Assembly: GCA_964393525.1 (NCBI GenBank) | Contig: CAYMTV010000001.1 | Span: 1,545 to 65,544, forward strand | From: an uncultured Gammaproteobacteria bacterium | Lineage (GTDB): Bacteria; Patescibacteriota; Microgenomatia; Daviesbacterales; UBA10151 | Direction of reading: 5' to 3' | Length of the DNA: 64,000 nucleotides | Shown: positions 5,713 to 53,214 of the stretch, one piece after another | Position numbering within the stretch: position 1 is the stretch's first letter | Layout of the letters: each line of letters begins with the position of its first letter | Notes under the pieces: model-generated | The model's input: the letters and a program-made list of their open reading frames with translations, nothing else | Databases searched by the model: none | Told to the model about the DNA's origin: nothing | Made by a program: the position numbers and the translations under genes

Positions 5713-6758
5713 TTTGTGGCCTCTTCTTTGGCAAAATACTCATCCTGGATTGCAGGAACTAAAGCCACAAACCCGTCTCCCTCAAAAACATAAATAGGTT
5801 GCAGATATTTAGTGTATTTATCTGAGAGCAAGTAAGCCAGATAGATAGAAGACAGGTCAATTTTTCTGCCGGGCGGACTCACTACAACTACCCCTTTGCC
5901 TTCTTGCAGCTCATTAAACGCAGTTTCGGCATTTTTAATAGGGTAGGTAGCAAGATTCGTTTGATCAATTGACCAATAGGTGTAATTTAATTTTAAATAC
6001 TTGTTCCTTTCTTCAGTATATTTTGTCACTGTTGCTTTAATTAACCCTTGGGTAAATTCTTTAGTAATTATCGGGTAGCGGATTTCGTCGTCAACTAAAT
6101 CACTTTGCCAAAGGGTTACTTCTGCCTGATCACTTTCCTGTTGGGTTGCTCCATTATAGAAAACCTTGGACCCCCCTCCTCTAAGATCTTCCGGAAGTAA
6201 GCCCAGAGTGCCTAAGAAAGATTTAAATTCACTAACAATCTTTCCCTGATCGCCCACAATTTCATCCTGGAAGGTTGCACTTTCGGTAGAGATTGTTCTG
6301 GTAAACTCAAAGTTACCGGTATCCAAATCTACCCTCATCTCTCCGCCCAAATTATCAGTAAATCTGTAAAGAGTTGGGTTGATAATTTCGGGAACAGAGT
6401 CAAACTCCAGCTTTTGTGCCAAACCTTTTGCCCTATCTGATGAAAGAAGCGTAGTTCCAAGCTTTGATATAAAATAAACCTTCATCAGTGTTGGAGTATT
6501 TGACGGGAGGTTGCCGGTTTCAGTAACAAGCTCATATGTATAATCCGATGATGGAGATTGTCCCTGACCCAAATCAGGTCTTGGCAGGAGGTTGAATTTT
6601 GTATCGGCTTTTTCCTGAGGCGGTGGTATTTTAGAGCGCTGATAATTAATGTACCAGTTGAGTCCTATCCAGGCAGAACCCAGCAGCACAATTACAATTA
6701 AGCCAATAACGAACCCTTTTTTGGTAAGGGCGGCAGTTTGAGTTAGAGTTAGCGCCAT
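5709..6758 (-). CDS. Hypothetical membrane-anchored protein
   Basis: 349-aa ORF with one N-terminal TM helix and no recognisable motifs. Convergent with the dac gene. Confidence 0.5.
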   Translation of the reverse strand: MALTLTQTAALTKKGFVIGLIVIVLLGSAWIGLNWYINYQRSKIPPPQEKADTKFNLLPRPDLGQGQSPSSDYTYELVTETGNLPSNTPTLMKVYFISKLGTTLLSSDRAKGLAQKLEFDSVPEIINPTLYRFTDNLGGEMRVDLDTGNFEFTRTISTESATFQDEIVGDQGKIVSEFKSFLGTLGLLPEDLRGGGSKVFYNGATQQESDQAEVTLWQSDLVDDEIRYPIITKEFTQGLIKATVTKYTEERNKYLKLNYTYWSIDQTNLATYPIKNAETAFNELQEGKGVVVVSPPGRKIDLSSIYLAYLLSDKYTKYLQPIYVFEGDGFVALVPAIQDEYFAKEEATN

Positions 6759-11959: not shown

Positions 11960-12042
11960 ATCCTGTAATAATTACTACTAGCTATAAATCAGCTTTGTAG
12001 TAATATTTTTTTTGAGTTGACAATTACCTATAATAAAAATAT

Positions 12043-12960
12043 ATGGGGAAAAGTAAAATAAAATTATCAATCATCGGTTCCGGTATAGTAGGTCAGGCAA
12101 CGGGCAAGGGTTTTATCGAAAAAGGGTTTGATGTAACCTTTATTGATGTTAATCCAAGCATTATTGAAAAATTAAACAGCCAAGGTTGCAGGGCTTATCT
12201 CGCAAGCGATAGGGAAAATATTCCCTATACCGACATTTCCATATTCACAGTTCCTACCCCCACTATTGGTGACGAAATCGAGCTAAAGTTTCTAAAAGCA
12301 GCTGCTAAAGATCTGGGAAAAAGAATCGGGAAGATGAAAAGAGATCACTTAGGAGTAGTCAGAAGTACTGTTGGCCCCGGAAGCACAGAGATTATGCTTA
12401 AAATTTTAGAAAAATACTCAGGTAAGAAAGCCGGCAAAGACTTTGGGGTTTGTATGAATCCAGAGTATCTAAGAGAAGTATCAGCCTTGGAAGATTTTGC
12501 TAATCCCTGGATTGTAGTAATAGGAGAATTTGATAAAAGATCAGGAGATTTATTAGAAAAAGTTTATAAAAGATTTAAAGCTCCGATCCACAGAGTTTCT
12601 TTGAAAGAAGCTGAAATGCAAAAATATGTTCACAATTTATACAACGCCTATAAAATCACTTTCTTTAATGAAATGAGAAGGATTGCTCAGGCTTTAAAAA
12701 TTGATGCCGAGAATATGTTTGAGATGACTGTCAAAAGCTGCGAGGGGATCTGGAATCACAGTTATGGGACCCGTAACTTTGGACCATTCTCCGGAAGCTG
12801 TCTGCCAAAAGATACTCAGGCATTTCTAGCTTGGGCACAGAAAAAAGGTTATGAAGCGGACTTGCTTGAAACTACGATTGAGGTTAATAAAACTTTTATT
12901 TCAAGAAAAGTAGATACAACCAGAATCCTCCCAACACGCTACTCAGAATTACCACTTTAG
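12043..12960 (+). CDS. UDP-glucose/GDP-mannose 6-dehydrogenase family protein, C-terminally short
   Basis: GSGIVGQATG NAD-binding motif, NPEYLREVSALEDF segment, and catalytic Cys in SCLPKD. It is 305 aa against the usual ~400-440, so the C-terminal nucleotide-sugar domain appears absent. Confidence 0.7.
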   Translation: MGKSKIKLSIIGSGIVGQATGKGFIEKGFDVTFIDVNPSIIEKLNSQGCRAYLASDRENIPYTDISIFTVPTPTIGDEIELKFLKAAAKDLGKRIGKMKRDHLGVVRSTVGPGSTEIMLKILEKYSGKKAGKDFGVCMNPEYLREVSALEDFANPWIVVIGEFDKRSGDLLEKVYKRFKAPIHRVSLKEAEMQKYVHNLYNAYKITFFNEMRRIAQALKIDAENMFEMTVKSCEGIWNHSYGTRNFGPFSGSCLPKDTQAFLAWAQKKGYEADLLETTIEVNKTFISRKVDTTRILPTRYSELPL

Positions 12961-25431: not shown

Positions 25432-25704
25432 ATGACTTTTAAACCAAGAGATATCCATGAGCGCATTTTACATAGGTTAAAAATCACCAAAGGTCATCTA
25501 AATAAGGTGATTAAAATGAATGAGGATGGGGAGTATTGCATTAATGTTCTTCACCAATCTCAGGCAGTTCAAAAAGCCCTAAAAGAAATTGATAACTTAA
25601 TTTTAGAAAACCATCTGAAAACTTGTGCTGCCCATGCAATAAAACAAGGCAATAGTGAAGAAGCAATCTCTGAGGTGATGAGTGTTTTCAGAAAAAAGAC
25701 TTAA
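25432..25704 (+). CDS. csoR: CsoR/RcnR family metal-sensing repressor
   Basis: 90-aa all-helical protein with the C...H...C signature (YCINVLHQ, HLKTCAAH). Confidence 0.75.
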   Translation: MTFKPRDIHERILHRLKITKGHLNKVIKMNEDGEYCINVLHQSQAVQKALKEIDNLILENHLKTCAAHAIKQGNSEEAISEVMSVFRKKT

Positions 25705-25733
25705 CCCAAAATATTGAACGATCGTTTAAGTTT

Positions 25734-26105
25734 TTGGAAAAAAATATGAAAATAGATCAGATTTTAGTTATTATTTTTGGGATTTTAGGGATTGGATTTG
25801 TTTACTGGTTTTTCCTGATGAGGAAAGAAAAGACAGTTGAGGCTTCGGATTCAATCGATATTACCGTTGAAGGAGGCTATAAGCCGGAAGTAATTAAAGT
25901 CCAAAATAACATAACTACAAAATTAAATTTTATTCGCAAAGACCCTTCAACCTGCCTAGAAGAGGTTGTACTGAGTGATTTTAAAATCAAAAAATACCTG
26001 CCGTTAAATCAAAAAACCACCATAGAAATTACTCCAAAAAAAGTAGGCGAGTTCCCTTTTTCCTGCGGGATGAATATGTTCCATGGGAAGCTAATTGTTG
26101 AGTGA
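25734..26105 (+). CDS. Membrane-anchored cupredoxin-like copper-binding protein
   Basis: N-terminal TM helix. The C-terminal KLNFIRKD...[14 protein letters not shown] is paralogous to the C-terminus of the 29209 ORF, with conserved Cys/Met/His. Confidence 0.45.
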
Positions 26106-28336
26106 GTATGAAAAGAACATTCCCAATCAAAGGCATGCACTGTGCTAGCTGTGTTCGGGTAACTGAAAAGGCTTTATCAAAAATCCCCGGAATAGCTTTA
26201 GCAAACGTTAATCTGGCAACAGAGAAAGCCACTATAGAATATGATTCGGCCTCGGTAGATGATGAAAAGATCAAATCAGCTATTTCAAGCGTGGGGTATG
26301 AAGCAATGCTTAATGAGGAAGTTGAAACAGAAGACAAGAATAAAATAGAGAAACAAAAAGAATTAGACAGGCTTAAGCTACAGGTTTTTGTAAGTTTATC
26401 GATTGGAGTGTTAATAGTTCTTGAATTGCTTCCATTTGCCAAGCCCCTACATCACCTGCTTTTTCCCAATGAGTTTATTACTCTTTTGGCAGCATCATTA
26501 GTGCAATTTTGGCCTGGACTTCAGTTTTACAGGGCAGCGATACCTGCGCTAAAAAACCGGCTGGCCAACATGGATACTCTGGTAATGATCGGTACGAGCG
26601 CAGCTTATCTTTATTCGGCAACTGCTGTTTTATTCCCTCAAATCTTTGAACTAGCCGGAATAGAACCCGAGCCTTATTTTGATGTTGCGGTTATTATAAT
26701 TGGATTGATTCTTTTGGGAAGGTATTTTGAGGCAAGGGCAAAAATGGGTACTTCTGAGGCAATTAAAAAATTAATCGGGTTACAGGCTAAAACCGCCAGA
26801 GTTTTGAGACTAGGGAAGGAAGTCGACATTCCAATTACCGAGGTAGTAAAAGGAGATATCATCCGGGTACGACCTGGAGAGAAAATTCCGGTTGACGGTG
26901 TAATTACCGAAGGTCAGTCAAGTGTTGATGAATCAATGGTGACAGGTGAGAGTATTCCGGTCGATAAAGCTAAGGGAGATACAGTAATTGGTGCAACAAT
27001 TAATAAATCCGGAACTTTTACTTTTAAAGCGACCAAGGTTGGAAAAGATACTATGCTTGCCCAGATTATTAAATTGGTTGAAGAAGCCCAAGGCAGTAAG
27101 GCTCCTATTCAACGGATTGCCGATTTAATTTCTTCTTATTTCGTACCAATTGTGATCATGCTTGCTGTAGCCACTTTTGTTGTCTGGTATATTTTTGGTC
27201 CACAACCTGCTTTTTTGTATGCGGTATTAAACACAGTGGCTGTATTAATAATTGCCTGTCCTTGTGCAATGGGATTGGCTACTCCGACCGCGATAATGGT
27301 GGGAACCGGCAAAGGGGCGGAACACGGCATATTAATTAAGGACGCCGAAAGCCTGGAGATTGCCCATAAAGTAAGTACCATAATCTTTGACAAAACCGGG
27401 ACCTTAACCAAGGGCCAACCTGAGGTTACAGACATTGTAGTAAATAACAAGATACAAGCGACGAGAGATAAGTTATTACAGATTGCAGCATCAATTGAAA
27501 AGGGATCCGAACATTCACTGGCCGAGGCAATAGTTAAAAAAGCTGAAGAAGAAAAACTTAATTTAAGCAAAGTTGAAAGATTTAAAGCCATTGCCGGGCA
27601 AGGGGTTGAGGGCTATATCAATAATCGAAAAGTTGCATTAGGTAACAGAAAATTAATGGACAGTGAGAAAATTAATTACTCAAAATTAATTGATGAAGTA
27701 GAAAAATTGGAAAATCAGGGCAAGACAGTAATGTTTCTTGCTCAAAATGGTAGTCTCGCCGGACTTATTGCAGTAGCAGATACATTAAAAGACACTGCGA
27801 AAGAGGCGGTAAGTGCTTTAGAAAAGCAAGGCATTGAAACCATAATGATTACCGGAGATAACCAAAGAACAGCCCAGGCAATTGCTAAACAAACCGGTGT
27901 TAAAAGGTTTATTGCCGAAGTTTTGCCAGACCAAAAGGAAACCGAAGTGAGAAAAATCCAGAAGGAAGGTAAGGTTGTGGCAATGGTGGGGGATGGAATT
28001 AATGATGCTCCGGCTTTGGCTCAAGCCGATATCGGGATTGCCATGGGTACTGGGACAGATGTAGCAATGGAGTCGGCAGATATAACCTTAATAAATAAAG
28101 ACTTAAGGTCGATCGTTTCTACAATCAAGCTTTCCAAGCAAACCATGCGGGTCATAAAGCTGAATCTTTTCTGGGCTTTTGGCTATAACGTTATTTTGAT
28201 TCCTGTGGCAATGGGACTTTTATATCCTTTCTTTGGGATTTTACTAAACCCGATTCTAGCATCAGCTGCAATGGCTATGTCTTCAATTTCGGTTGTTGGC
28301 AACTCCTTACTTTTGAAAAAAGCTAATTTGACATAA
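26102..28336 (+). CDS. copA: Copper-translocating P1B-type ATPase
   Basis: HMA domain GMHCASC, CPC motif, [15 protein letters not shown], 744 aa. Confidence 0.9.
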
Positions 28337-40342: not shown

Positions 40343-40447
40343 TATCCAATATCTTGTGTATTGACAGCTCTTCTATTCAATATGCTAACTTAAATATACC
40401 AGCAAAGATGTTGAATACCTGGTAGGCGTAGGGTACAATATCTTGTA
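40343..40447 (+). promoter_or_regulatory. Candidate NrdR boxes upstream of nrdR
   Basis: CCAATATCTTGTGT and TACAATATCTTGTA resemble the NrdR box consensus (acaCwAtATaTwGtgt). Confidence 0.35.
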
Positions 40448-40893
40448 TGAGGTGTATATTTTGCGGTAGCGAACAAAGCTCGGTAATAGACAAAAGAGGA
40501 GTAAGATCCACCGGAGAAATCAGAAGACGCAGGGAATGTTTGAAATGCCATGAGCGTTTCACAACTTATGAGAGGGTAAGCGCTTTTGAGCTTAATGTTT
40601 TAAAGCGGGATGGCTCAAAAGAAGCTTTCGATAAAAATAAAATAAGATCAGGTTTGGCTAAAGCTTTGGAAAAACGCCCTCAGTTTGAAAATTTGGAAGA
40701 GATTGTTGAAAAAGTTATTGCCCGTTTGAAACTAAAGGGTAAAAAAGAGATAGAAAGCAAGGCAATAGGCAGGGCCGTTCTAAACGAGCTGAAAAAAAGA
40801 GACCAGGTGGCATATTTGCGCTTTGCTTCGGTCTATAGAGATTTTAAGCACCTGGAAGACTTTGAAAAAGAACTAAAAAGCCTTAACGTTTGA
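40447..40893 (+). CDS. nrdR: Transcriptional repressor NrdR
   Basis: N-terminal Zn ribbon CxxC...CxxC and an ATP-cone domain, 148 aa. Confidence 0.9.
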   Translation: MRCIFCGSEQSSVIDKRGVRSTGEIRRRRECLKCHERFTTYERVSAFELNVLKRDGSKEAFDKNKIRSGLAKALEKRPQFENLEEIVEKVIARLKLKGKKEIESKAIGRAVLNELKKRDQVAYLRFASVYRDFKHLEDFEKELKSLNV

Positions 40894-40894
40894 T

Positions 40895-40960
40895 ATACAA
40901 TATATTGTATAGAATTTGATATCTTGTCAAGTTATTACACAATATATATGATATTCTTTA
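40895..40960 (+). promoter_or_regulatory. NrdR boxes upstream of nrdJ
   Basis: Perfect palindrome TACAATATATTGTA, plus GATATCTTGTC and ACACAATATATATG repeats. Confidence 0.5.
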
Positions 40961-43549
40961 TTGATTAAACTAGCATTAAATGTTATGCAAAATCTAACCA
41001 AAAAACCTAGAAAAATTCAAGACCAAACAACCTCTTTGGAGGTCACTGTCCCCAAAACTTATGGTAAAGCCAAGAAAACAAACGGTCATGTCAAAACCAA
41101 TGGTCATGCAAATGGCTCGGCCAAAAAACAACTTGATCCGGCAGCGGTTGAAGCTGCAGCAAGAAGTTTAGTCCCAAACATTGATGCAAAAACTGAATTG
41201 GAGGGTATCAGGCAAAAAGTTTTTCTGGACAGGTATTCCCTAAAAGATATAGATGGTAAACCCGTAGAGGCTACAGTTGAACAGATGTGGCAAAGAGTCG
41301 CAGGAGGTATAGCCATGGAGGAGAAAACTCCTGCTTTGCAAAGGCAGTGGGCACAAAAGTTTTATCAGGCAATGACTGACTTTAAGTTTGTCCCGGCAGG
41401 ACGAATTTTATCCGGCGCAGGAACGGGTTATGAGGTAACTTTTTTTAACTGCTATGTCATCCCATCCCCGAAAGACTCAAGAGGGGGGATTATGGAGAAT
41501 ATTACCCATACTGTTGAGATCCAAGCTAGGGGCGGAGGTGTGGGGATTAACTTGGCATCTTTAAGGCCTTCTGGCGCAAGGGTTCGCAAGGTTAACGGTA
41601 CTTCTTCCGGCCCTGTTTCCTGGGCTAAACTGTATTCTGCAGCCAACCATGATGTTATTCAACAGGGTGGCTCAAGAAGAGGAGCTTTGATGTTGATGCT
41701 GCATGATTGGCATCCGGATATAGTGGAATTTATTCATGCCAAAGAGGACGGGCAGTCTATCCCCGGCGCTAATTTATCGGTTTGTATCTCGGATAAATTT
41801 ATGGAGGCTTTAGAAAATGATGGTGATTGGACAACTCGTTTTCCCGATACAACCGATCCTGAATATGACGCGTTTTGGGATGGGGATATTGAGAAATGGG
41901 AAGCTTTGGGCAAACCCGTAAAAATTTATGAAACCTACAAAGCCCGCGATATCTGGGATCAGATCTGCACCTCAGCCTGGGCTTCGGCTGAACCTGGGTT
42001 GCACTTTTTAGAAAGGTCCAATAAATGGAGCAATACATATTATTTTGAGAAACTTTTGAGTACAAATCCATGCGGGGAACAGCCCCTGGGTGAATGGGCA
42101 GTTTGTAATTTGGGAGCAATGAATCTGTCGGCATTTGTCAAAGAGGATGGAAGTTTTGATTATAAACTTTTGGATGAAACGGTCAGGATTGCCATGCGGT
42201 TTATGGATAATGTAGTTGATGCCAACCACTACTTTTTTGAGGAGAATGAGAAAAAAGCTAAAGAAATAAGAAGAACCGGAATTGGCACAATGGGCTTGGG
42301 AGATACCCTGATCAAACTGAAATTAAGGTACGGATCAGAGGAAGCAATGCCGATTATTGAAAAAATCTACAAAACTATCCGGGATGCAGCATATGAAACT
42401 TCGGCAGAGCTTGCCAAAGAAAAAGGTTCTTTTCCTAAATTTGATAAAGAGAAATATTTAGAGGGTCATTTTATTAAACAACTTCCCGATGATATTCAGA
42501 CAAAGATTGGCAGTGACGGAATCCGTAATGCGGTTATTTTAACCCAGGCTCCAACCGGGACAACCTCTCTTTTGGCAGGTGTATCCTCAGGGATTGAACC
42601 TGTTTTTGATTTTAAATTCATAAGACGGGATAGAATTGGTGAGCATGTTATATATCATCCGCTTTTCCAAAAGTGGCAGGCGGAAAACCCGGAAGTGGAG
42701 TATGAGAATAGACCTGAATATTTTGTGGGAGCAAATGACATGACTCCTCTAGACCACGTTAAAGTCCAGGCTTTAGTCCAAAAATACACCGATTCCTCGA
42801 TTTCAAAAACAGCTAATGCGCCGCACGAGTTTACAATAGATCAGGTAAAAGAGCTTTACATGCAAGCCTATAAACTTGGCTGCAAAGGAGTAACATTTTT
42901 CAGAGATGGTTCAAGAGGTGGGGTTTTATATCATGATGATGGTAAAAAAGAGGAAAAGATTGAGGAAGCAGTGGTTCCGGTACCGGAAGAAGAACCAAGA
43001 GAACACAGGCCGATGATTCTTCGGGGTCGGACTTATGAGGTTGTAACTCCGGTTGGAAAAGCCTTCATCACAGTTAACAGAGACGAGAAAGAACAGCCGT
43101 TTGAGGTATTTATCACAGTTGGTAAAGGTGGAATGCATACCCAGGCAGATGCGGAAGCAATTGGAAGGCTGACCTCAATTTCTCTTAGAATTGCCAAAGG
43201 CAACAGGCGCGAAATTGCCCAGAAAATAGTTTCCCAACTTTCAGGAATTGGTGGTTCAACCCATGTTGGGTTTGGTAAAAACCGGGTGATGTCTTTGGCA
43301 GACGCAGTCTCCAAGGTTTTAGCAGAGGATCTGGCATTATCTGAAACCGTTGAGGAACCAGCTGAACAGGTACCGCTAAGTATGCCTGCGGAAGCCGAAA
43401 GTAAAGCAGATGATGTCGCCCCTGCTGCAGGTCAACTTGATCTGGCGATCAACAAAGGTGCAGACCTTTGCCCGGAATGTGGAGAAGTAACCTTTGTTCG
43501 GGAAGACGGTTGTGAGAAATGCTACTCCTGCGGCTACTCTAAGTGCTGA
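40961..43549 (+). CDS. nrdJ: Ribonucleotide reductase, class II (adenosylcobalamin-dependent), with C-terminal Zn ribbon
   Basis: NPCGEQPL active-site motif and a C-terminal CPECGE...CEKCYSCGYSKC, 862 aa. Confidence 0.8.
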   Translation: MIKLALNVMQNLTKKPRKIQDQTTSLEVTVPKTYGKAKKTNGHVKTNGHANGSAKKQLDPAAVEAAARSLVPNIDAKTELEGIRQKVFLDRYSLKDIDGKPVEATVEQMWQRVAGGIAMEEKTPALQRQWAQKFYQAMTDFKFVPAGRILSGAGTGYEVTFFNCYVIPSPKDSRGGIMENITHTVEIQARGGGVGINLASLRPSGARVRKVNGTSSGPVSWAKLYSAANHDVIQQGGSRRGALMLMLHDWHPDIVEFIHAKEDGQSIPGANLSVCISDKFMEALENDGDWTTRFPDTTDPEYDAFWDGDIEKWEALGKPVKIYETYKARDIWDQICTSAWASAEPGLHFLERSNKWSNTYYFEKLLSTNPCGEQPLGEWAVCNLGAMNLSAFVKEDGSFDYKLLDETVRIAMRFMDNVVDANHYFFEENEKKAKEIRRTGIGTMGLGDTLIKLKLRYGSEEAMPIIEKIYKTIRDAAYETSAELAKEKGSFPKFDKEKYLEGHFIKQLPDDIQTKIGSDGIRNAVILTQAPTGTTSLLAGVSSGIEPVFDFKFIRRDRIGEHVIYHPLFQKWQAENPEVEYENRPEYFVGANDMTPLDHVKVQALVQKYTDSSISKTANAPHEFTIDQVKELYMQAYKLGCKGVTFFRDGSRGGVLYHDDGKKEEKIEEAVVPVPEEEPREHRPMILRGRTYEVVTPVGKAFITVNRDEKEQPFEVFITVGKGGMHTQADAEAIGRLTSISLRIAKGNRREIAQKIVSQLSGIGGSTHVGFGKNRVMSLADAVSKVLAEDLALSETVEEPAEQVPLSMPAEAESKADDVAPAAGQLDLAINKGADLCPECGEVTFVREDGCEKCYSCGYSKC

Positions 43550-43814: not shown

Positions 43815-44366
43815 ATGGGCTCCAAAAAATTTAAGGAAACTAAAAATGGATTGGTGATTGTTTATACCGGAGAAGGTAAGGGGAAGACTACTGCAGCTTT
43901 GGGTTTGGTTTTAAGAGCTGTGGGGTATAAAAAAAAAGTTTTGATTGTCCAATTTTCCAAAGTTTGGTTTACGGGTGAGGTAGAAGCAGTTAAAAAATTA
44001 GCTCCCTACGTAAAATTGGTCCAGGGGGGTTTGGGGTTTGTCAAAATCCTGGATGATAATGCCAAGCTTTCAGAACATAAAAAAGCTGCCAGTAAGCTTT
44101 ATGAATATTTATATAAGGAAATTACATCGGGCAAATGGGATGTGGTGATAGCAGATGAGATAGTAGGGGCTGTTGCCGGGAATGTTTTAAAACAAACCCA
44201 AGTTAATAAGCTCATTAAAGACAAGCCGGAAAAGCTTGATTTAGTCTTAACAGGACATTACGCTAAGGAAAGCTTAATGAGAAAAGCAGATCTGGTTACA
44301 GAAATGGTCCCGGTCAAACATCCATTTGAAAAAGGCTTTTTAGCCAAAGAGGGCATTGATTATTAA
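43815..44366 (+). CDS. btuR: Cob(I)alamin adenosyltransferase (CobA/BtuR/CobO family)
   Basis: P-loop GEGKGKTTAALGLVLRAVGYKKKVLIVQFSK, 183 aa. Confidence 0.8.
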   Translation: MGSKKFKETKNGLVIVYTGEGKGKTTAALGLVLRAVGYKKKVLIVQFSKVWFTGEVEAVKKLAPYVKLVQGGLGFVKILDDNAKLSEHKKAASKLYEYLYKEITSGKWDVVIADEIVGAVAGNVLKQTQVNKLIKDKPEKLDLVLTGHYAKESLMRKADLVTEMVPVKHPFEKGFLAKEGIDY

Positions 44367-44560: not shown

Positions 44561-46966
44561 ATGGCACTTGATCCACTGTCCCAACCATTAAAGTTAACCA
44601 AGACAATGCCGGTAGGCCCCTTAAGAGGCACAGTCATCTTTCCCGGAAATACTGTTCCTATAATTTCAGGCAGAGCCAAATCTAAAGCTGCATTGGATGC
44701 CGCCTGGGCAACCAACAGATTGATAGTTTTTGTCACCCAAAAAAATGAAAGAATTGATGACCCCGAGCCCAAAGATTTATACCAGGTAGGCACAGTCTGC
44801 TTAATCAAAAGAATCCTAAAAGTTGATGGTGAATACCAGATGTCCGCTGAAGGACTGGTTAGAGTTTTCCTCAAAAAATTTATCCAGACAACTCCATATT
44901 TTGAAGCTGAAATTGAAGAGATCCCTGAACTTTATGAAAAAACCGAAGAAACGGAAGCCTTAATTCGGACTGTTAAAGATCAGTTAAGAAGGTACCTTGA
45001 GCTTGGCGGCAATGCCTTATTTGACCCTTCTGGTCTCTCAAGCTGGTCATTTTTAACCCAAAATGAAGACCCAAACCATCTGGTAAATTCCATCTGCCAG
45101 ATGATCGAGTTTAAAACAATCGACAAGCAGCAGATTTTAGAGATGGTCTCCGCCTTAGATAAGCTCCAGCGGGTTTCCGAGCTTTTAGCAAAAGAAGTCA
45201 GGATCTTGGAAATTTCCCAAAAAATTTCAACTCATACCCAGGAAAGAGTCTCAAGAATGACCAAAGAAGCAATCCTTAGGGAGCAGATGAAAAGCATAGA
45301 GGAAGAGCTTGGGGAAACCGGCGAAAGTCAGGAGATTAGGGAGTTTGAACTAAAAATCAGGAAAGCCGGAATGCCCAAAGAAGTCCGGGAAAAAGCCAAT
45401 AAAGAGCTTTCAAGATTAGCTAAGATGTCTTCCTATAACCCCGAAGCTGCCTACATCAGAAACTACCTGGAGTGGCTGACTGACCTTCCCTGGAAAACAA
45501 CTTCAAGAATGAAGATAGATATGAAGAAAGCTCAGGAGATTTTGGATGCAGAACATTATGGTCTGAAGAAAGTCAAAGAGAGAGTTTTGGAATACCTGGC
45601 TGTCTTTAAGCTCGCTGGCAAACTAAATGGGCCTATTCTTTGTTTTGCAGGACCCCCGGGAACAGGTAAAACTTCAATTGGCAAGTCGATAGCCAAAGCC
45701 TTAGGTAGAAAATTTGTCAAAGTTTCTCTGGGAGGAATCAGAGATGAAGCTGAAATCAGGGGTCATAGAAGAACTTACGTTGGATCAATGCCCGGAAGAG
45801 TAATTCAGTCGATTAAACAAGCAGGAACCACCAACCCGGTATTTATGCTTGATGAAATTGACAAAATCGGGGCCGATTATAGGGGTGATCCTTCAGCAGC
45901 GCTTTTGGAGGCATTAGACCCTGAACAAAACCACGCATTTTCTGACCATTACTTGGAAGTATCTTATGACCTTTCAAACGTCATGTTTATTACAACTGCC
46001 AATGTTTTGGATACAATCCCCCCGGCTTTAAGAGACAGGTTGGAGGTTATTCCCTATCCCGGATATACTCAAGATGAAAAATTCCACATTGCCAAAAACT
46101 TTTTAGTCCCAAAAATTATGCAGTCTCATGGCATGAAAGGGAAAAAGATCGAATTTGAAGATGGTGCAATCAGGCAGGTTATTGAAGGTTACACCAGAGA
46201 AGCAGGAGTTAGGAGCCTGGAAAGGGAGTTATCGGCGATAGTTAGAAAAATCGCCAGGAAATTTGCCGAAGGTGAGAAAAAAGACACCTTTATGGTTTCC
46301 GCCGAAGAAGTAAGAAAGCTTTTAGGTCCGGTCAAATTCCTGCCTCAGCTGGCTGAGATGGAAGATATGATCGGTGCCTCAACAGGATTGGCTGTGACAG
46401 AAGCAGGAGGAGATGTACTGTTTATTGAGGTGACTTTAATGCCGGGCAAAGGATCTTTGCAGCTTACAGGACAATTAGGTGAGATTATGAAAGAATCCGG
46501 GCAGGCTGCAATGAGTTATGTTAGGTCTCACTGGGCCAAACTCGGGTTGCCGGAGAAATTCTTCCATAAAGTAGATGTCCATGTTCACGTACCAGAAGGT
46601 GCGGTTCCCAAAGACGGACCTTCTGCCGGAATTGCCCTAACAACTGCTATTGTCTCGGCATTTACTAAGATTCCTGTCAGAAAAGATGTGGCGATGACCG
46701 GAGAGGTAACGCTTCGGGGAAGGGTTTTGGAAATTGGCGGACTGAAAGAAAAAGTTTTGGCAGCTCACAGGGCTGGAATTAAAAAGCTAATTGCTCCAGA
46801 TCATAACAGAAAAGATCTAGAGGATATTCCTCAATATGTATTGGATGATATTGAGTTTCATTTTGTCAAACATATGGACGATGTCTTAAGAGTAGCTTTA
46901 ACTCGGGAACCGGGTGCAACATCTCACAAAAGACTCCCAATCTCCCCTCGGCCTGCCCTAGCCTAA
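44561..46966 (+). CDS. lon: ATP-dependent Lon protease
   Basis: LON N-domain, Walker [10 protein letters not shown], catalytic [10 protein letters not shown] (Ser) and K in the MTGE...GGLKEK region, 801 aa. Confidence 0.9.
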
Positions 46967-47008: not shown

Positions 47009-47785
47009 GTGAATAAGGCGTTGGGTTTAATTATTATCCTTCTGCTGCTTGGAGTAGCAGGCTTTGTTTTGATCAATACCCAGTCTAAACCAGAGGTAGA
47101 AAAAGAAGAGGCAAAAACGGTTCCTAAACTGGAAACCTCGGCGCCAGATACAAGCTCTCAGTTTACCTTTCAGACCCCTAAAAAAAGCGCCCACTTTGAA
47201 AGCAATACCCCAGAGCATGGAGCAGTTTTTGCGGGAGTTCCCATTAATGTTGTGATTAACTTCAACTTTGATTTGGCAGAGCCCTCGGATATTTCGATCA
47301 CTGGTTCAGATAATAAGGAATATGGCGTAGGGGAAACGATTATTGATCAAAACAAACTAGTGCTGAGAAAGGTGATGGATCAAAGCTCTCCTGATGGTAA
47401 ATATAAGGTGACTTACAATGCCTGCTGGCCAGATAAAAACTGTCATGATGGGTATTTTGAGTTTGCTGTAGATAGATCTAAACAGAAAAGCTTTATCAAT
47501 TTAAAAAACCGAAAAGAATTAACCATTGATATGAAAGATATTAAATTTCAGCCCGAAAATATTTTAATAAGCCCGGGGACAAAAATAACCTGGATTAACA
47601 TCGATAATGTGGATCATTTTATAAATACCGAGTCACATCCTGCTCATACCTACTATCCCGAGCAAAACTCAAGAGCCTTAAAAAAAGGAGATAAATATAC
47701 GCTCACTTTTAATAAGCCCGGGATATATCTTTACCACTGCAGTGCCCACGAAGCCTATATGAAGGGCGCAGTAGTCGTAGATTAA
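47009..47785 (+). CDS. Membrane-anchored CopC-like domain fused to type-1 (blue) copper cupredoxin domain
   Basis: N-terminal TM. The middle domain GKYKVTYNACWPDKNCHDGYFEFAV resembles CopC. The C-terminal HCSAHEAYM has C-x2-H-x3-M ligand spacing, with an upstream His in VDHF. Confidence 0.55.
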   Translation: MNKALGLIIILLLLGVAGFVLINTQSKPEVEKEEAKTVPKLETSAPDTSSQFTFQTPKKSAHFESNTPEHGAVFAGVPINVVINFNFDLAEPSDISITGSDNKEYGVGETIIDQNKLVLRKVMDQSSPDGKYKVTYNACWPDKNCHDGYFEFAVDRSKQKSFINLKNRKELTIDMKDIKFQPENILISPGTKITWINIDNVDHFINTESHPAHTYYPEQNSRALKKGDKYTLTFNKPGIYLYHCSAHEAYMKGAVVVD

Positions 47786-47895: not shown

Positions 47896-49908
47896 ATGGA
47901 TTTCATACTCAACAATTTGGCAAATACTTTAATATGGGGTGGGGCGCTTGCCGCAACAATTTATGGTTTATTTTTAGGCGGGTGGATCCTAAAGCAGCCC
48001 AGGGGTGATGAAAAGATGAATGAAATTGCATCTGCCATTCAACAAGGGGCAGCAGCTTACCTTACAAGGCAATATACAGTTGTCGGCGTAGTGGCCTTAG
48101 TTTTAGCCGCATTGATATTTCAATTCTTCGGTTTAAACAGCGCTTTAGGGTTTATCGTAGGTAGCGTCTCTTCGGCATTTGCCGGATTGATCGGTATGCT
48201 GGTGGCTGTTCGGGCCAACGTCCGTTGTGCAGAAGCTGCCAAAAAAGGCTTGCCTCAGGCTTTTGAAGTAGCTTTTAAGGGCGGAACTGTTACCGGGTTT
48301 CTGGTTGTGGGACTTGCTTTGGCTGCAGTTTACGGATTTTATCAATACAGCCAGGATTTGCCTTCACTGATATCCTTGGGTTTTGGAGCTTCGCTTATTT
48401 CGGTTTTTGCCAGGCTTGGAGGAGGGATTTATACCAAGGGTGCTGATGTTGGAACGGATATGGTGGGAAAAGTCGAAGCCGGAATCCCCGAGGATGACCC
48501 AAGAAACCCGGGGGTAATTGCCGATCTGGTTGGAGATAATGTTGGAGATGATGCCGGAATGGCAGCAGATGTTTTTGAAACTTATGTTGTTACGGCAATT
48601 GCTGCCATACTTTTGGGTAACTTACTTTTTCCAAGCAGTGGAGTTCCGGTTTTGTCATCAATTGTAAATTATCCTTTGAGCTTAATGGCTGTGGCTATTT
48701 TTGCCTCAATCATAGGTAGTCTTTTTGTTCGTCTTCAGGGCAAAAAAATTATGGGCACCCTTTATCTCGGGTTAATTATTACCGTAGGGCTCTCGGCAGT
48801 TTTTTTCTTTCTTGTCACAAATTATTTTGCCGGAGGATTCATAGGTGTTGAGCCCATGAACTTGTTTATTTCCACTTTGATCGGATTGGCTGTTACCGGC
48901 GGTATGGTTTATATTACCGAGTACTATACCGGGACCCAATATAATCCGGTCAAGCACATCGCCGAAGCTTCCAAAACCGGCCACGGAGCTAATATAATAG
49001 TTGGTTTAGCTATATCGCTTAAGTCAACTTTTGCACCAATTGTTTTAATCTCAATGGCAATCCTGTTTGCTTTTTCTCTGGCCGGGTTATATGGTATCGC
49101 CCTGGCTGCAGTAGCGATGCTTTCTTTGGCAGGGATAGTTGTGGCAATTGATGCATTCGGCCCGATTACCGACAATGCGGGAGGGATTGCCGAAATGTCT
49201 TCTCTTCCCACAAAGGTAAGAAATGTAACCGATCCTTTGGATGCTGTCGGAAATACCACCAAGGCCGTGACCAAAGGATATGCTATTGCTTCAGCCGGGC
49301 TGGCAGCACTGGTTTTGTTTGCAGCGTACGCCCAGGAGCTTGGTGAGGGTGTAGAATTTTCCTTGTCCAATCCAAACGTTTTAATCGGACTTTTTATTGG
49401 TGGAGCGCTGCCGTACCTTTTTGCTTCCTTTGCAATGGAAGCTGTCGGAAAGGCCGGAGCTGCTGTGGTGGTTGAGGTAAGAAGACAGTTTAAGACCATT
49501 AAGGGGATTATGGAGGGGAAAGCCAAACCGGATTATGCAGCTTGTGTTTCAATAGTTACTGCCACCGCTCAAAGAGAAATGATTATACCAACCTTAATAC
49601 CAATAGTGATTCCTGTACTATTAGCTTTGCTTTTAGGTCCTGAAGCTTTAGGGGGATTACTTATGGGAGTAATTGTCACCGGGCTTTTTGTGGCACTGTC
49701 CATGACTACCGGTGGTGCAGCCTGGGATAATGCCAAAAAATATATTGAATCAGGCCATTTTGGAGGCAAAGGATCTTTTGCCCACCAGTCCGCAGTAACA
49801 GGGGATACAGTAGGGGATCCATACAAGGACACAGCAGGGCCTGCGATAAATCCCATGATTAAAGTTGCAAATATTGTTGCACTACTACTAGTACCCTTTT
49901 TAAGATAA
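47896..49908 (+). CDS. hppA: Membrane-bound proton/sodium-translocating pyrophosphatase
   Basis: [31 protein letters not shown] and [19 protein letters not shown] signatures, ~15 TM helices, 670 aa. Confidence 0.9.
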
Positions 49909-49909
49909 A

Positions 49910-50281
49910 TTAGGGGTTTTCCAGAAATTCCTCGATTCTATTTACTAAATCTTGAGGTGTTAACCTCTCCTTTAACAAGAAACCCTTGGCGCCCTGCTTT
50001 AAGACCTCAGTAATCAGTTTCTCCTGATCGCTTGATGCTAAAATAACCACCGGGATATTTTGAGTTTGGGGGTTTTGTTTCAATTGCTCTACAAGATTTG
50101 TGCTATTTGCTCGGATAGCCATAATATCTATTAGAATAATGCTGGGATTTGTTAGAGAAAACTGCAAAAGTTCCTCCTCATTTTTAGCAGTAACTACCTC
50201 AAAATTGGCATTGTTTAGAGCCTGCATATAAATTTCAAGCAAAAAAGGCGAGTCTTCAAATAGCAAAATTTTTCTTCGCAT
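49910..50281 (-). CDS. Single-domain response regulator (CheY-like receiver)
   Basis: Trimmed to the internal MRRKILLFEDS start. The ORF-track version overlaps the kinase by 266 nt. The receiver domain has an LIDIM phospho-Asp region. Confidence 0.7.
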   Translation of the reverse strand: MRRKILLFEDSPFLLEIYMQALNNANFEVVTAKNEEELLQFSLTNPSIILIDIMAIRANSTNLVEQLKQNPQTQNIPVVILASSDQEKLITEVLKQGAKGFLLKERLTPQDLVNRIEEFLENP

Positions 50282-50285
50282 ATTT

Positions 50286-51845
50286 TTAAGAGTGTAAATT
50301 AATTGCGTTTTGGTCAGATAATTGCCTGGTTTGGATTGCAACAGGTAGACTAAAGCTAAAGGTAGAGCCCCGCCCGAGTTCTGATTGGACCCAAATCCTG
50401 CCTTTATGAAGTTCAACAATTGCTTTAGAAATATAAAGCCCCAAGCCTGTTCCAACAACGTTTTGCTCCAGTTTTCCGGAGGCCCTAAAGAATTTAGTGA
50501 AAAGATGCGGGATTGCATCTTTGGCGATTCCCTGACCTGTGTCCGTGACATGAGTTATGACATCATTGCTAATGTGCTCAAGCCAGACCTGGATTTGTCC
50601 TCCTGAGGGAGTATAATTTATGGCATTGGCGATTAAGTTATTTACGACCTCGCTAATTCTCATCTGGTCGGCTTGAATGAAAGGAATAGGGGTGGCGGGT
50701 TTAATAAATGACAGGGTAATTCTTTTATCAGATGCCCGAATTATAAAGTCGTGGACTGTCTGGTCAACAAAAGCGACCCAATCCAAAGGCTGGGCTGAAA
50801 TTGTTATCGCTCCCCGTTCGATTCTGGAGACGTTTAGAAGATTTTCAACTAAAGCCGACAACTTCTGGGCGGAGATGCCGATTCTATCCAGAAGCATTTT
50901 TTGATCGGTATTAAATCCTTTACCGTATTCTTCAATAAAAACCTGAAGGTAGCCCTTAATAGAGGTTAATGGGGTTCTTAGTTCATGTGCCGCGACAGAT
51001 ACAAAGTCAACCTTCATCTTATCCAGCTGCTTATTTTCCGAAACATCATGCAAGTTTATGATATGACCGATATCATTCCCTCTGCTATCTTGCATAATAA
51101 AAGAGGCAAGATCGACAAATATCTCCTTTCTTTTTTCGCTGTTTTTTAAATCATCCAAGGTTGGGTAGTCCTGAAAGGGTTTTGTAGGTTTAACGTGTTC
51201 ATGAAGCAAGTCCCGGTCTAAAAGTTTAACCCCTTTTCTAAAAAAAGCGGTTTGATTTAAATTGGTTCCAGGGCAATATATTGAGGGGTCTATATCCAAA
51301 CTGTTTTCTATAAACCGGATCACTTCATTGATTGGCTTTCCGATAACTTCTCCGGTTGACCAACCGGTTAATTTTTCCGCAGCTTTATTAAAAACCATTA
51401 CTTGACGGTTTAGGTTAAGAGCGATGATCGGGTCTATCGCATAGTCCAAAGAGAAAGCCAGGATGTTCCTTTCCGAGAAGATCCGGTTTTGGTTTTGAGC
51501 AGTATTTTGTAGCTTTTTATTTACAGTATCAATTAAGTTATTGATGGAATTTGCCAAATCTTCCAGCTCGTCCTGGGTTTTAAGATTAATTTTGTAGTCA
51601 AAGTGGCCCTTTGATAATAGATCTGCGCCCTCAGCCAAATTTCTAATAGGACTTATGAAAATAGTTACCAGACCAACACCGGTAAGTAAAACAACTGTTA
51701 GAATTATCAATATATCCAAAGTAGCAATCCCGGTTAGGTTAAAATTTGCCAAAATCAGAGTAACTATTGAGATCAAAAGAAACAAAACCAAAAGTTTGAT
51801 CTTTAGGCTGAAAAAGTGTTTGGCTTTTTTGAGGTTTGGGTCCAC
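50286..51845 (-). CDS. Sensor histidine kinase (TM-HAMP-PAS-HisKA-HATPase)
   Basis: AAHELRTPLTSIKGY H-box, NLIANAINYT N-box, DTGQGI and GTGLGLYISK G-boxes, a PAS segment, and 2 N-terminal TM helices. Confidence 0.85.
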   Translation of the reverse strand: MDPNLKKAKHFFSLKIKLLVLFLLISIVTLILANFNLTGIATLDILIILTVVLLTGVGLVTIFISPIRNLAEGADLLSKGHFDYKINLKTQDELEDLANSINNLIDTVNKKLQNTAQNQNRIFSERNILAFSLDYAIDPIIALNLNRQVMVFNKAAEKLTGWSTGEVIGKPINEVIRFIENSLDIDPSIYCPGTNLNQTAFFRKGVKLLDRDLLHEHVKPTKPFQDYPTLDDLKNSEKRKEIFVDLASFIMQDSRGNDIGHIINLHDVSENKQLDKMKVDFVSVAAHELRTPLTSIKGYLQVFIEEYGKGFNTDQKMLLDRIGISAQKLSALVENLLNVSRIERGAITISAQPLDWVAFVDQTVHDFIIRASDKRITLSFIKPATPIPFIQADQMRISEVVNNLIANAINYTPSGGQIQVWLEHISNDVITHVTDTGQGIAKDAIPHLFTKFFRASGKLEQNVVGTGLGLYISKAIVELHKGRIWVQSELGRGSTFSFSLPVAIQTRQLSDQNAINLHS

Positions 51846-51893
51846 AATTTGATTTTAACAGGCATGAAATTTAACAACAAGACAGCGGAAGGA

Positions 51894-52376
51894 TCAAGTA
51901 GGTTGATTTTGAGGTTTTTGAGGCTCCAGGGCTTTTTTAACTTCTGCCAGGACCTGATCCGGGGTATACGCTGCTTTAATTAGGTAACCCTGGGCTCCAA
52001 GCTGAAACCCCTCTTTTATAACAGTATCCTGCCCTAAGTTTGTTAAAAGCAAGACAACCATAGAGGAATTCGGGTTTTTGACTTTCCATTGTCTTAGTAC
52101 CTCAAGCCCGTTTATACCAGGTAGCATGATATCCAAAAGCAGAAGGTCAAATTGTTCTTCGGAAAGAGTCTGCAGTCCGGCGGTTCCGTCGTTAACAGTT
52201 TTTACCAGATAACCTGCTTTGGTTAGTTGTCTGGCGTATAAATCAGCAATAAAAATCTCATCCTCAATTATTAGTATCTTCCTTTGAGCTTGGGGGGGTG
52301 GAACTGTTGGGGTTTGGGGCGGAGCATCAGGTGGCATAGTACTATTCAAGGTAGTAAGTTTTAGCCTATTTGTCAA
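51894..52376 (-). CDS. Single-domain response regulator with Pro/Thr-rich N-terminus
   Basis: ILIIEDE...LLLLDIMLPGINGLEV receiver motifs, with no output domain. Confidence 0.75.
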   Translation of the reverse strand: MTNRLKLTTLNSTMPPDAPPQTPTVPPPQAQRKILIIEDEIFIADLYARQLTKAGYLVKTVNDGTAGLQTLSEEQFDLLLLDIMLPGINGLEVLRQWKVKNPNSSMVVLLLTNLGQDTVIKEGFQLGAQGYLIKAAYTPDQVLAEVKKALEPQKPQNQPT

Positions 52377-52432
52377 CCCAAGGTTTTAATAGAATCCTAT
52401 AGTTTGAAGAATTATTTGTTTAGGTATATAAT

Positions 52433-52454
52433 TGTTCACAATTAATTGTGAACA
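52433..52454 (+). promoter_or_regulatory. Perfect 22-bp palindrome TGTTCACAATTAATTGTGAACA (operator candidate)
   Basis: 11-bp perfect arms. A TATAAT box 17 nt downstream ends 7 nt before the ATG at 52484. An extra half-site TTTCACAAT follows. Confidence 0.45.
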
Positions 52455-53140
52455 GATTTATTGTTTCACAATATAATTTGGATATGAGTATAGAGATAAA
52501 AATCAGACCGGGGATTACGGAAATTGCTGCTGGGGTAAAAGCCAAAGTAGGACTTCTTAGGCGAAAATTGAGAGATGCGAGCGAAACTGCTCTTCATGAA
52601 ACAGAACACCTCCTAACATTATTACTAAGAAGAAAGGGATTTAGAAGAGCTACAATTAATCCCGGGCCAGGATATCTTGGAATGGTTGAGCCATACGAGT
52701 ATGATGCGCCTTCCTTTGCAGCGCCTGCTGCAAGGTGCCGAGGTGGCGTAGGGCATGATTTGGCTGTTGTTGCAGCTATGGGAGATGATATTGGTATTGC
52801 AAAGTCAGTAGCCAACAGCACCTTAGCTGGAAACGAAAGAAAATTGCTTGTTGTCGCTTCCAGACTAGAGGAAGAAGGTGAAATTACCCAAACTGATGCA
52901 GAGAGAGCTATAGATGATGATGCAAACCCCTTTGCTCGAATTGAGATATTAGGACCTAATGTAAATAGGAAATTTGAACAAAAAACTTGGGAACAGGAAG
53001 GGCATTTAGTAAGTATTGAGTTAGCGGATTTTGAATTAGATAGCCATCCATTGGCAGAAAAAGTGAACGGAAATATATTAACCTTCAGACCGAGAACCGG
53101 TGTTCATCGTTGGCAAGAACCGGAACTGAAAGTTGGCTAG
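52448..53140 (+). CDS. Hypothetical protein with HExxH motif (possible metallopeptidase-like); likely true start ATG 52484
   Basis: ALHETEHLL contains HExxH. There is no other recognisable family signature. GC content looks higher than the neighbours by eye. Ends 1 nt from tRNA-Glu. Confidence 0.45.
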   Translation: MNRFIVSQYNLDMSIEIKIRPGITEIAAGVKAKVGLLRRKLRDASETALHETEHLLTLLLRRKGFRRATINPGPGYLGMVEPYEYDAPSFAAPAARCRGGVGHDLAVVAAMGDDIGIAKSVANSTLAGNERKLLVVASRLEEEGEITQTDAERAIDDDANPFARIEILGPNVNRKFEQKTWEQEGHLVSIELADFELDSHPLAEKVNGNILTFRPRTGVHRWQEPELKVG

Positions 53141-53214
53141 TACCGCGTACGGGAGTCGAACCCGTGATTTCATGGATGAGAACCATGTGTCCTAGGCCAC
53201 TAGACGAACGCGGC
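53141..53214 (-). tRNA. tRNA-Glu (anticodon CUC)
   Basis: Reverse complement GCCGCGTTCGTCTAGTGGCCTAGGACACATGGTTCTCATCCATGAAATCACGGGTTCGACTCCCGTACGCGGTA gives a canonical cloverleaf and is close to E. coli tRNA-Glu. Confidence 0.85.

Follow-up and report, generated by a model that had tools for sequence, protein, structure and literature searches.

Organization of the locus

We analyzed a predicted protease gene and the palindromic promoter region in front of it (positions 52433-53140) in a 64-kb stretch of DNA from contig CAYMTV010000001.1; this whole stretch is called the window below, and handles such as L011 designate related loci. The gene encodes a protein of 218 amino acids (aa) that is predicted to be a free-standing, soluble relative of the FtsH protease domain (peptidase family M41), and a perfect 22-bp palindrome, a putative operator, lies over the −35 region of its promoter. 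The palindrome, with its perfect 11-bp arms overlapping the −35 region, and a TATAAT box ending 7 nt before the ATG at 52484 had both been reported in a first-pass annotation of this DNA, and they were found again at 52433-52454, where one arm supplies the hexamer TGAACA, and at 52472-52477, respectively. A distal TATAAT and a third copy of a palindrome half-site, which had been overlooked there, were added to the elements of the locus, which are as follows.

52404-52432, plus strand: distal promoter-like site TTGAAG-17-TATAAT (10/12 match)
52433-52454, no strand: perfect 22-bp palindrome TGTTCACAATTAATTGTGAACA, putative operator, centered 40.5 bp 5′ of the ATG
52449-52454, plus strand: −35-like hexamer TGAACA, supplied by the right arm of the palindrome
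52465-52472, plus strand: third half-site TTCACAAT, abutting the −10 box
52472-52477, plus strand: −10 hexamer TATAAT of the proximal promoter, with 6 nt between the box and the ATG at 52484
52484-53140, plus strand: coding sequence (CDS; open reading frame with stop codon TAG at 53138-53140) of the predicted 218-aa free-standing FtsH-like (M41-type) zinc metallopeptidase domain
52595-52609, plus strand: HExxH zinc-binding/catalytic motif H38-E39-T40-E41-H42, aligned with HEAGH of E. coli FtsH
52757-52759, plus strand: D92 of G-x-G-x-D, candidate third zinc ligand, invariant (88/88)
52787-52789, plus strand: D102, fitting the FtsH D-I-x-x-A-x-x-x-A-R pattern
53140-53214 (lower limit 53140/1), minus strand: tRNA-Glu(CUC), from ARAGORN and Rfam, convergent with the CDS

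The palindrome TGTTCACAATTAATTGTGAACA consists of two perfect 11-bp arms without spacer and is the longest perfect palindrome of this kind in the 64 kb. In 200 simulations under a first-order Markov model, a window contained on average 0.03 palindromes with arms of at least 11 bp, and the single copy in the window at up to three mismatches is the palindrome itself (0.00 further copies expected). The sequence around the palindrome and the promoter reads aattGTTCACAATTAATTGTGAACagatttattgTTTCACAATATAATttggatATG. The proximal promoter, TGAACA-17-TATAAT, scores 10/12, and the last T of its TATAAT stands 7 positions ahead of the A of the ATG at 52484 (TATAAT-TTGGAT-ATG). The distal TATAAT (52427-52432) is located directly 5′ of the palindrome, and the start predicted for the distal promoter falls within the left arm; this distal promoter-like site is not conserved in the homologues. 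The third TTCACAAT lies exactly 30 bp from the identical 8-mer in the left arm (52435-52442). At the other end of the gene, the stop codon has one base in common with the tRNA-Glu(CUC), the tRNA being all that an Rfam scan of the locus found.

A free-standing FtsH-like protein family

The window belongs to a genome of Candidatus Daviesbacteria, and the 218-aa protein is 100% identical to the hypothetical protein HYS97_03320 (NCBI, Candidatus Daviesbacteria). Pfam and NCBIfam scans matched it to no family, and it did not reach the curated thresholds of PF01434 or TIGR01241. Homologues were collected with a two-sequence profile by exhaustive HMMER searching of 1.84 billion representatives, which was required because a word-indexed search returned just 2 and then 9 proteins. 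The family obtained in this way comprises 275 clusters at E ≤ 1e-3 and 155 at E ≤ 1e-10, with lengths of 113-279 aa among the 150 members listed, and the N-terminus of the window protein (MSIEIK) aligns with the N-termini of its homologues. The named sources so far are genomes of the candidate phyla radiation (CPR) only (Daviesbacteria, Levybacteria), most members coming from unnamed metagenome contigs. An alignment of 88 members gave the consensus TAxHEAxHAV…ATIxPGPGYLGxT…DAxAAxAPHAxGxxGTGHD…GxDxxxAxxxAR…AVAxxLExxGT.

Compared with the PDB, the family profile produced 13 top matches, all of them FtsH/YME1 chains (best E 6e-6), and hhalign placed the family on the E. coli FtsH protease domain with 94% probability over the HExxH and PRG…LG segment; the E. 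coli sequence used here is consistent with the residues shown in the PDB profile matches. Sub-threshold matches to PF01434 were present in 25 of the 88 members (best E 3.7e-5). An AlphaFold2 model built with the 88-sequence alignment reached a pLDDT of 89.8, whereas the model built with two sequences only (pLDDT 32) was of no use. When the PDB was searched with Foldseek, the top 17 matches were YME1, FtsH, AFG3L2 or FtsHi, mostly at probability 1.0 and with TM-scores of about 0.4-0.48, the isolated protease domain 2di4 giving a TM-score of 0.48 and an rmsd of 3.8 Å. In BFVD, a viral structure library, the top 7 matches were likewise all FtsH/M41, one of them being a 214-aa stand-alone phage protein; over the two libraries together the TM-scores run from 0.38 to 0.48. 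Outside this core, the model shows a three-stranded β-sheet at either end, followed by a C-terminal tail of low confidence. No AAA+ domain was found in the 218-aa protein by Pfam, and no hydrophobic segment was apparent by eye.

Judged by these profiles and by the model, the 218-aa protein is predicted to be soluble, to lack a motor, to be distantly homologous to the M41 protease domain and to have a zincin-like mode of action; it falls outside M41 as curated because it stays below threshold and has no AAA+ module. Its catalytic core would be that of a distant FtsH/YME1 relative without AAA+ ATPase or membrane anchor, and with no unfoldase attached its substrates would be peptides, unfolded chains or a specific exposed site, cut independently of ATP. 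The first-pass annotation had described a protein of about 219 aa whose HETEH motif marks a zinc metallopeptidase, of no assignable family, and had suggested M78/ImmA, WLM or DUF45. Motif and approximate length were right and the FtsH-type profile and fold matches agree with a zinc metallopeptidase, but a family can be assigned, since sensitive profile and fold searching gave FtsH-type M41 in place of those suggested. An ImmA/IrrE-type (M78) or other minimal zincin, which would cleave a cognate repressor, could also take the form of a small soluble HExxH protein, and some homologues do lie near toxin-antitoxin-type genes. We nevertheless hold this to be extremely unlikely: the 25 most frequent Pfam families among the matches of the 88 members do not include M78, WLM or DUF45, neither these three nor minigluzincin-type folds are among the matches of the profile and fold searches, which gave FtsH-type proteins only, and the window has no adjacent helix-turn-helix (HTH) repressor gene.

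The HETEH motif (aa 38-42) is located within a predicted helix of the AlphaFold2 model (34-48), and HExxH is present in 144 of 151 family members. In the alignment, H38 is conserved in 86/88 sequences and both E39 and H42 in 87/88; G66, G88 (88/88) and D92 (88/88) are invariant, and A110 is nearly so. In the proposed active site, zinc would be held by H38, H42 and an Asp, and E39 would serve as the general base. D102 fits the FtsH motif, yet it is Asp in 50/88 sequences only, and D92 is favored over it as the most likely third ligand because of its conservation.

A C-terminal -AA was found in 58 of 151 family representatives (ELPKAA, ELALAA and KIRIAA, for instance), where 1.7 were expected, the background among other open reading frames (ORFs) of the same loci being 4/151. 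A C-terminus of the form …LAA-COOH is the ssrA-type degron, which is recognized by ClpXP/FtsH. By their sequence, the -AA tails of these 58 relatives resemble an ssrA/ClpX-type degron, whereas the window protein ends in ELKVG, with no terminal AA. A different tail motif, HPLxEK[IL], occurs in the low-confidence C-terminal region of a subset of the family that includes the window protein (aa 189-196, 53048-53071). In L056, a close relative, the slot of the protease gene is filled by a different hydrolase (L056:3160-3852, minus strand; a weak alpha/beta-hydrolase match) that ends in RHLLAA, the same kind of C-terminal tail in the same place. Identity between L011 and L053 was 85% for the H+-PPase, 80% for lysyl-tRNA synthetase (LysRS) and 59% for the aminoglycoside phosphotransferase-type protein (APH), as against 31% for the protease-family protein, and on such figures the family is estimated to evolve several-fold faster than the neighboring genes.

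Promoter, palindrome and candidate regulators

The arrangement TATAAT-N6-ATG is found in the window, L001, L008, L011 and L054, and L053 has N9. In the window the −10 box stands within the 5-8 nt of the start codon expected of a leaderless mRNA, with no Shine-Dalgarno sequence. Because it recurs in divergent homologues, the leaderless start can be regarded as an inherited property of the gene, and the leaderless transcript proposed in the first-pass annotation is likely; the mRNA is predicted to start at or beside the ATG, from the TATAAT 6 nt upstream. Other leaderless-type starts in the window are those at 8581 (minus strand), 12043 and 6811. Upstream of the −10 box, TTGACA is present 8 nt before TATAAT in four relatives and is gone in the window, where its place is taken by the palindrome, the right arm of which gives TGAACA at 17-bp spacing, and by the third half-site at the −10 box. 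A 22-bp palindrome over the −35 and a third TTCACAAT touching the −10 would have replaced the sequence ahead of the −10 in no other genome than this one.

The promoters of the homologues share the consensus TTGACA-nnCAGgAc-TATAAT-TTAAGT-ATG, with a spacing far below the canonical 17 bp (L001:143-179, L008:~3965-4003, L011:~4967-5003 and L053:~5964-6003), and the window gene at 12043 has TTGACA-6-TATAAT-8-ATG (12007-12045). In L054 (~5004-5017), a 14-bp perfect palindrome, ATTTACCGGTAAAT, ends 24 nt before the TATAAT-N6-ATG of a distant homologue; lineage-specific operators may be a recurring theme of the family.

On its other side the palindrome faces a divergent two-component operon made up of a response regulator (RR), a histidine kinase (HK) and a second RR.

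52376-52371 and 52353-52348, minus strand: RR-operon promoter TTGACA-N17-TACCTT, with N10 to the ATG, conserved in L056-L058
51894-52337, minus strand: receiver-only response regulator (Pfam), first gene of the RR-HK-RR operon, start taken from the L015 gene call
49910-52337, minus strand: RR-HK-RR two-component operon (Pfam)

That the palindrome belongs to this operon was considered and rejected: a conserved promoter belonging to the operon itself lies about 70 bp from the palindrome, the operon's relatives do without the palindrome, and both RRs are receiver-only. The palindrome was absent upstream of the related RR operons, and 13 further metagenomic RR loci had neither palindrome nor protease gene. 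Since the RR promoter is separate, and palindrome-free in relatives, we assign the palindrome to the protease promoter, where on the sequences compared it appears specific to this lineage. As for the operon itself, its two receiver-only RRs flank a HAMP-PAS histidine kinase, with no DNA-binding output. The N-terminus of the first RR, MPPDAPPQTPTVPPP, is rich in proline, and over 800 close homologues of this RR, 65-86% identical to it, occur among Daviesbacteria and other Patescibacteria.

Further copies of the palindrome, through which the first-pass annotation had hoped to find other targets of the regulator, did not turn up. No palindrome was present upstream of any homologue examined, no look-alike (at most 4-5 mismatches) was found in any related locus, and the 9-mer half-site was not enriched in the window. 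In viral contigs, TTCACAATNNATTGTGAA gave 29 matches, roughly chance for the size of the collection and with no common context, and in 596 Gb of genomes, which evidently did not include the source genome, GTTCACAATNNATTGTGAAC gave 8 matches, none of them in CPR. In the full-text literature the operator sequence matched only primers and lacO concatenations. With no second copy in the window and related loci and with chance-level matches elsewhere, no regulon can be defined for the palindrome.

The palindrome is most likely a repressor operator, because it lies over the −35, over the distal predicted start and next to the −10; RNA polymerase would be blocked by a repressor that occupies this putative site as a dimer or tetramer. 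The first-pass annotation had spoken of a strong operator and of dedicated repression, the first part of which holds in that the palindrome is non-random and placed to occlude the promoter, while the second goes beyond the data, which point to no regulator with confidence. The operators of LexA types, CRP/FNR, Rex, Fur/Zur/PerR (7-1-7), OhrR, CIRCE, CtsR and lacO differ from the palindrome in half-site orientation or spacing and were set aside.

Two other roles for the palindrome are weaker alternatives. A class II activator site, at which a dimer bound near −41 would bring RNA polymerase to a promoter whose −35 is weak, would account for a palindrome centered at −40.5 from the predicted start, for an imperfect −35 hexamer (TGAACA) and for the loss here of the TTGACA that relatives carry upstream of the same −10. 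The third half-site touching the −10 and the distal start within the palindrome are both typical of repression, however, and in sites of the CRP type the half-sites stand in the opposite order to the TCACA-N6-TGTGA seen here, which leaves activation quite unlikely in our view. A palindrome without protein partner, being a chance feature, an RNA hairpin or a terminator, appears less probable again. Its RNA folds with −9.9 kcal/mol (z −2.5), a T-rich run follows and the site was flagged as terminator-like on the plus strand, but the stem is AU-rich and weak, and the only predicted plus-strand transcription toward the palindrome comes from the promoter that starts within the left arm; as for chance, perfect 11-bp arms at 0.03 expected per window and a half-site repeated a third time exactly 30 bp away speak against it.

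Among known regulators, the best candidate to bind the palindrome is, tentatively, NrdR, which is encoded 12 kb upstream. The elements that bear on this candidate are listed here.

40447-40893, plus strand: nrdR, candidate regulator gene (Pfam Zn_ribbon_NrdR and ATP-cone), 12 kb from the palindrome
40344-40359, 40433-40448, 40895-40910 and 40937-40952: NrdR-type boxes upstream of nrdR and of the ribonucleotide reductase (RNR) gene
52436-52451, no strand: 16-bp palindrome core TCACAATTAATTGTGA (box 1), fitting the critical positions of the NrdR box, with a TA middle
52466-52481: degenerate second box TCACAATATAATTTGG (box 2), containing the third half-site

The critical positions of an NrdR box are C4, A6, T11 and G13, with at least 63% AT required between C4 and G13; the middle AT is dispensable for binding in vitro, and TA middles are natural but among the rarest (PMC13584703). 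The canonical linker between boxes is 15-16 bp, a 14-bp linker having been reported for Thermotoga nrdJ, and a box that deviates where it coincides with a promoter hexamer has been described as a compromise, whereas a change of G13, or a second box without G13, abolished binding by E. coli NrdR (PMC13584703). In the window, core TCACAATTAATTGTGA has C4, A6, T11 and G13, the 8 bp that separate C4 from G13 being 100% AT. Box 2 follows after 14 bp and has C4, A6, A8 and T9, with A at 11 and T at 13, deviations that fall exactly where it coincides with TATAAT. The second-longest palindrome of the window is itself an NrdR-type box, TATACAATATATTGTATA (40895-40910), upstream of the class II RNR gene, and has ACAAT-NN-ATTGT in common with the core. 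The NrdR regulon of the window consists of boxes before nrdR and before the class II (B12-type) RNR gene (40961-43549), which is followed by a corrinoid adenosyltransferase gene (43815-44366); the two boxes ahead of the RNR gene are 26 bp apart.

It is possible, though we would not expect it, that the palindrome and the downstream half-box form an NrdR operator, so that the dATP/ATP-sensing NrdR would control the protease along with the RNR genes. This would explain the four critical positions and all-AT interior of box 1, and why box 2, which overlaps the −10, deviates only at TATAAT; the TA middle and the 14-bp linker both have the precedents cited above, nrdR lies in the window, the second-longest palindrome has the same core, and the nrdR promoter may likewise pair a good box with a half-degenerate one (40375-40390, by eye) 15 bp after the box at 40344-40359. 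Against it, box 2 is without T11 and without G13, the position whose change abolished E. coli NrdR binding, the linker is 14 and not 15-16 bp, and the TA middle is among the rarest. Moreover, the four-position rule performs at chance in this AT-rich window (15 sites, 15.3 expected), perfect symmetry continues for 3 bp past either end of the 16-bp box, as would be expected of a longer operator, the gene behind it does not encode an RNR, and no such box occurs upstream of the homologues. A helix-turn-helix-type repressor is considered more likely than NrdR to bind the palindrome. A slim chance is given to a combined idea, a “split FtsH”, in which the ssrA-like LAA tail of a rapidly diversifying, motor-less module, so far known from CPR only, would link this module to an independent AAA+ unfoldase, serving as docking handle or as self-destruct signal, and in which the module would have been rewired in Daviesbacterium to the dNTP-sensing NrdR, tying proteolysis to replication status.

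Genomic setting and comparison with known systems

The protease gene stands in a row of genes that was compared with the related loci. The two further members of this row with assigned coordinates are listed first.

44561-46966: Lon, window block
47896-49908: H+-PPase, window block

The order in the window is Lon, cupredoxin, H+-PPase, RR-HK-RR (minus strand), protease gene, tRNA-Glu (minus strand), PlsC-type acyltransferase (minus strand), class I LysRS, further genes and seryl-tRNA synthetase (SerRS). In L011 and L053, the homologues of which are about 31-39% identical over the aligned stretches, it is Lon, PPase, H+-PPase, one or two small ORFs, protease gene, APH(6), HAD, tRNA-Glu (minus strand) and LysRS, with SerRS after LysRS in L053. 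The block Lon / H+-PPase / protease gene / tRNA-Glu / LysRS / SerRS is thereby common to the window, L011 and L053, and in L001 and L008-L010 the homologue is located directly 3′ of the H+-PPase. The same tRNA-Glu stands between the slot and LysRS in L011, L053, L056 and L057. The slot itself differs in content among the window and these four loci, and elsewhere it holds genes of accessory or conflict type (APH(6), HAD, NTP_transf_2/Zeta-like, HicB-like and Fic).

The first-pass annotation had taken the gene for horizontally acquired cargo of foreign-looking composition, inserted beside the tRNA-Glu and silenced by a dedicated repressor at the palindrome. With the 51 genes of the window as reference, its composition proved unremarkable: GC was 0.431 against a mean of 0.395 (sd 0.039; z +0.93, rank 9/51), GC at third codon positions (GC3) was 0.292 against 0.337 (sd 0.054; z −0.84), and codon-usage divergence ranked 18/51 overall and 15/22 among genes of similar length. 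No tRNA 3′-end repeat of at least 11 nt was found near the locus, and no integrase among the annotated neighbors of the gene (two-component system, PlsC, LysRS). Homologues were absent from 50,697 phage genomes searched with tblastn and from plasmid collections; for the 218-aa protein PHROGs gave no match, and PADLOC gave no meaningful one, with two isolated single-member matches. What is correct in the cargo model is that the gene adjoins a tRNA-Glu, in a slot between the H+-PPase (or the two-component operon) and the tRNA that varies among relatives and lacks the protease gene in L056 and L057; the extreme divergence of the protease between otherwise close genomes and a palindrome found in this genome only would also suit it. 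Typical GC, GC3 and codon usage, the missing repeat, integrase and phage or plasmid homologue, and a placement and direction with respect to H+-PPase and tRNA-Glu that do not change between the window, L011 and L053 make this model unlikely, and a recent foreign origin of the gene is unsupported. Our reading is that the protease gene is a long-standing resident of the conserved block, of which the tRNA-Glu is part; the slot being plastic, the gene may be accessory in character.

Several side observations were made around this block. At L011:5594-7890 and L053:7339-8711, the protease gene is separated from the tRNA-Glu by genes of an APH(6)-type phosphotransferase and a HAD hydrolase, the L011 slot also holding an NTP_transf_2/Zeta-like protein; these cargo-like slot genes are absent from the window. 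A tRNA-Glu-like gene directly upstream of the RR gene, in the opposite relative orientation to that of the window, was seen at L058:1-35 and L062:~470-545, which hints at rearrangements around the tRNA. A 320-bp gene-free stretch with inverted repeats separates the homologue from argH in L001 (830-1150), with no Rfam match at E ≤ 0.1. Elsewhere in the window, a copper-handling cluster (25432-28336) comprises a CsoR-type metal-sensing repressor, a cupredoxin and a heavy-metal P-type ATPase, and a second CopC-cupredoxin protein is encoded at 47009-47785.

Taken as a whole, the best reading, to which we give a probability of about 60%, is that the locus carries the gene of a soluble M41-type protease with a leaderless transcript and, most likely, a palindromic operator, resident in a conserved chromosomal block within a variable slot adjoining the tRNA-Glu. 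Several points weigh against it. The TM-scores to FtsH are moderate, hhalign reaches the N-terminal half of the FtsH domain only and not the region of the third ligand, and that ligand is itself ambiguous between D102 and D92. The transcription start is predicted from sequence only, and the palindrome occurs just once in the window, is missing from the related loci and gave chance-level matches elsewhere. Simple residency is at odds with protease homologues that are 31% identical where H+-PPase is 85% and LysRS 80% identical, and with L056 and L057, close relatives (H+-PPase 85% and 78% identical, RR 80-81%) that keep the two-component operon and the tRNA-Glu and hold unrelated ORFs, with no homologue, in the slot. 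With these points taken into account, the locus is better described as a resident, predicted leaderless gene of an unannotated CPR family of M41-like proteins that in this one genome stands under a strong, putative palindromic operator.

To our knowledge, in every M41 protease characterized so far the protease domain is fused to an AAA+ unfoldase and anchored in the membrane, and searching the literature for stand-alone M41 proteins brought up nothing relevant. A motor-less soluble form raises the question of how substrates are chosen without a motor and how the enzyme is kept harmless, a question posed by conservation at the catalytic residues only, by fast evolution and by the ssrA-like tails of many members. 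CPR bacteria have tiny genomes, and most are not known to be culturable on their own. A protease retained and apparently tightly controlled in such a genome could have a part in regulated proteolysis or in conflict with host or phage. The locus is also a clean natural experiment in promoter rewiring, with a leaderless core promoter carrying TTGACA in the relatives and a perfect putative operator here; if NrdR does bind the palindrome, its reach would extend beyond nucleotide metabolism. The practical value today lies in a better annotation of some 275 clusters of hypothetical proteins, and of the loose ends the tails resembling ssrA, the extreme divergence and a possible link to NrdR are the most interesting.

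Among known systems, ImmA/IrrE (M78) resembles the window protein as a small soluble HExxH protein, with expression here apparently under tight control, and differs in showing no sequence or fold match and in that no partner repressor gene adjoins. The NrdR boxes, 16-bp partial palindromes that occur in pairs upstream of RNR operons, share with the locus C4/A6/T11/G13, an all-AT core, a second box over the −10 and an nrdR gene in the window, whereas at the palindrome the middle is TA, the second box is degenerate, the linker measures 14 bp, the symmetry goes past 16 bp and the target is not an RNR gene. Stand-alone M41-like proteins are already in the databases as uncharacterized entries. One of them, a “Peptidase M41 domain-containing protein” of an uncultured Caudovirales phage (A0A6J5RJ76, 214 aa), agrees with the window protein in size, in motor-less architecture and in fold (probability 1.0, TM-score 0.44/0.45, rmsd 3.6 over 161 columns), but the two are 12% identical only, and the phage protein is uncharacterized as well. 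The protease domain of FtsH/YME1/AFG3L2 (MEROPS M41, PF01434, Asp-zincins) differs in belonging to proteins of more than 600 aa, compared with about 200 aa here, in which an AAA+ module and a transmembrane segment are present; the window protein has extra three-stranded β elements at both ends and a disordered tail, and in its family the motif-equivalent ligand Asp (D102) is variable and another Asp (D92) invariant. Likeness to this domain extends from the HExxH helix and the P-x-G-x-x-L-G edge strand that follows it (PGPGYLG in the family, PRGRALG in FtsH) through the downstream G-x-G-x-D / D-x-x-x-A-x-x-x-A-R region to the C-terminal helical bundle, and FtsH-type M41 proteins were the sole significant profile and fold matches of the family.

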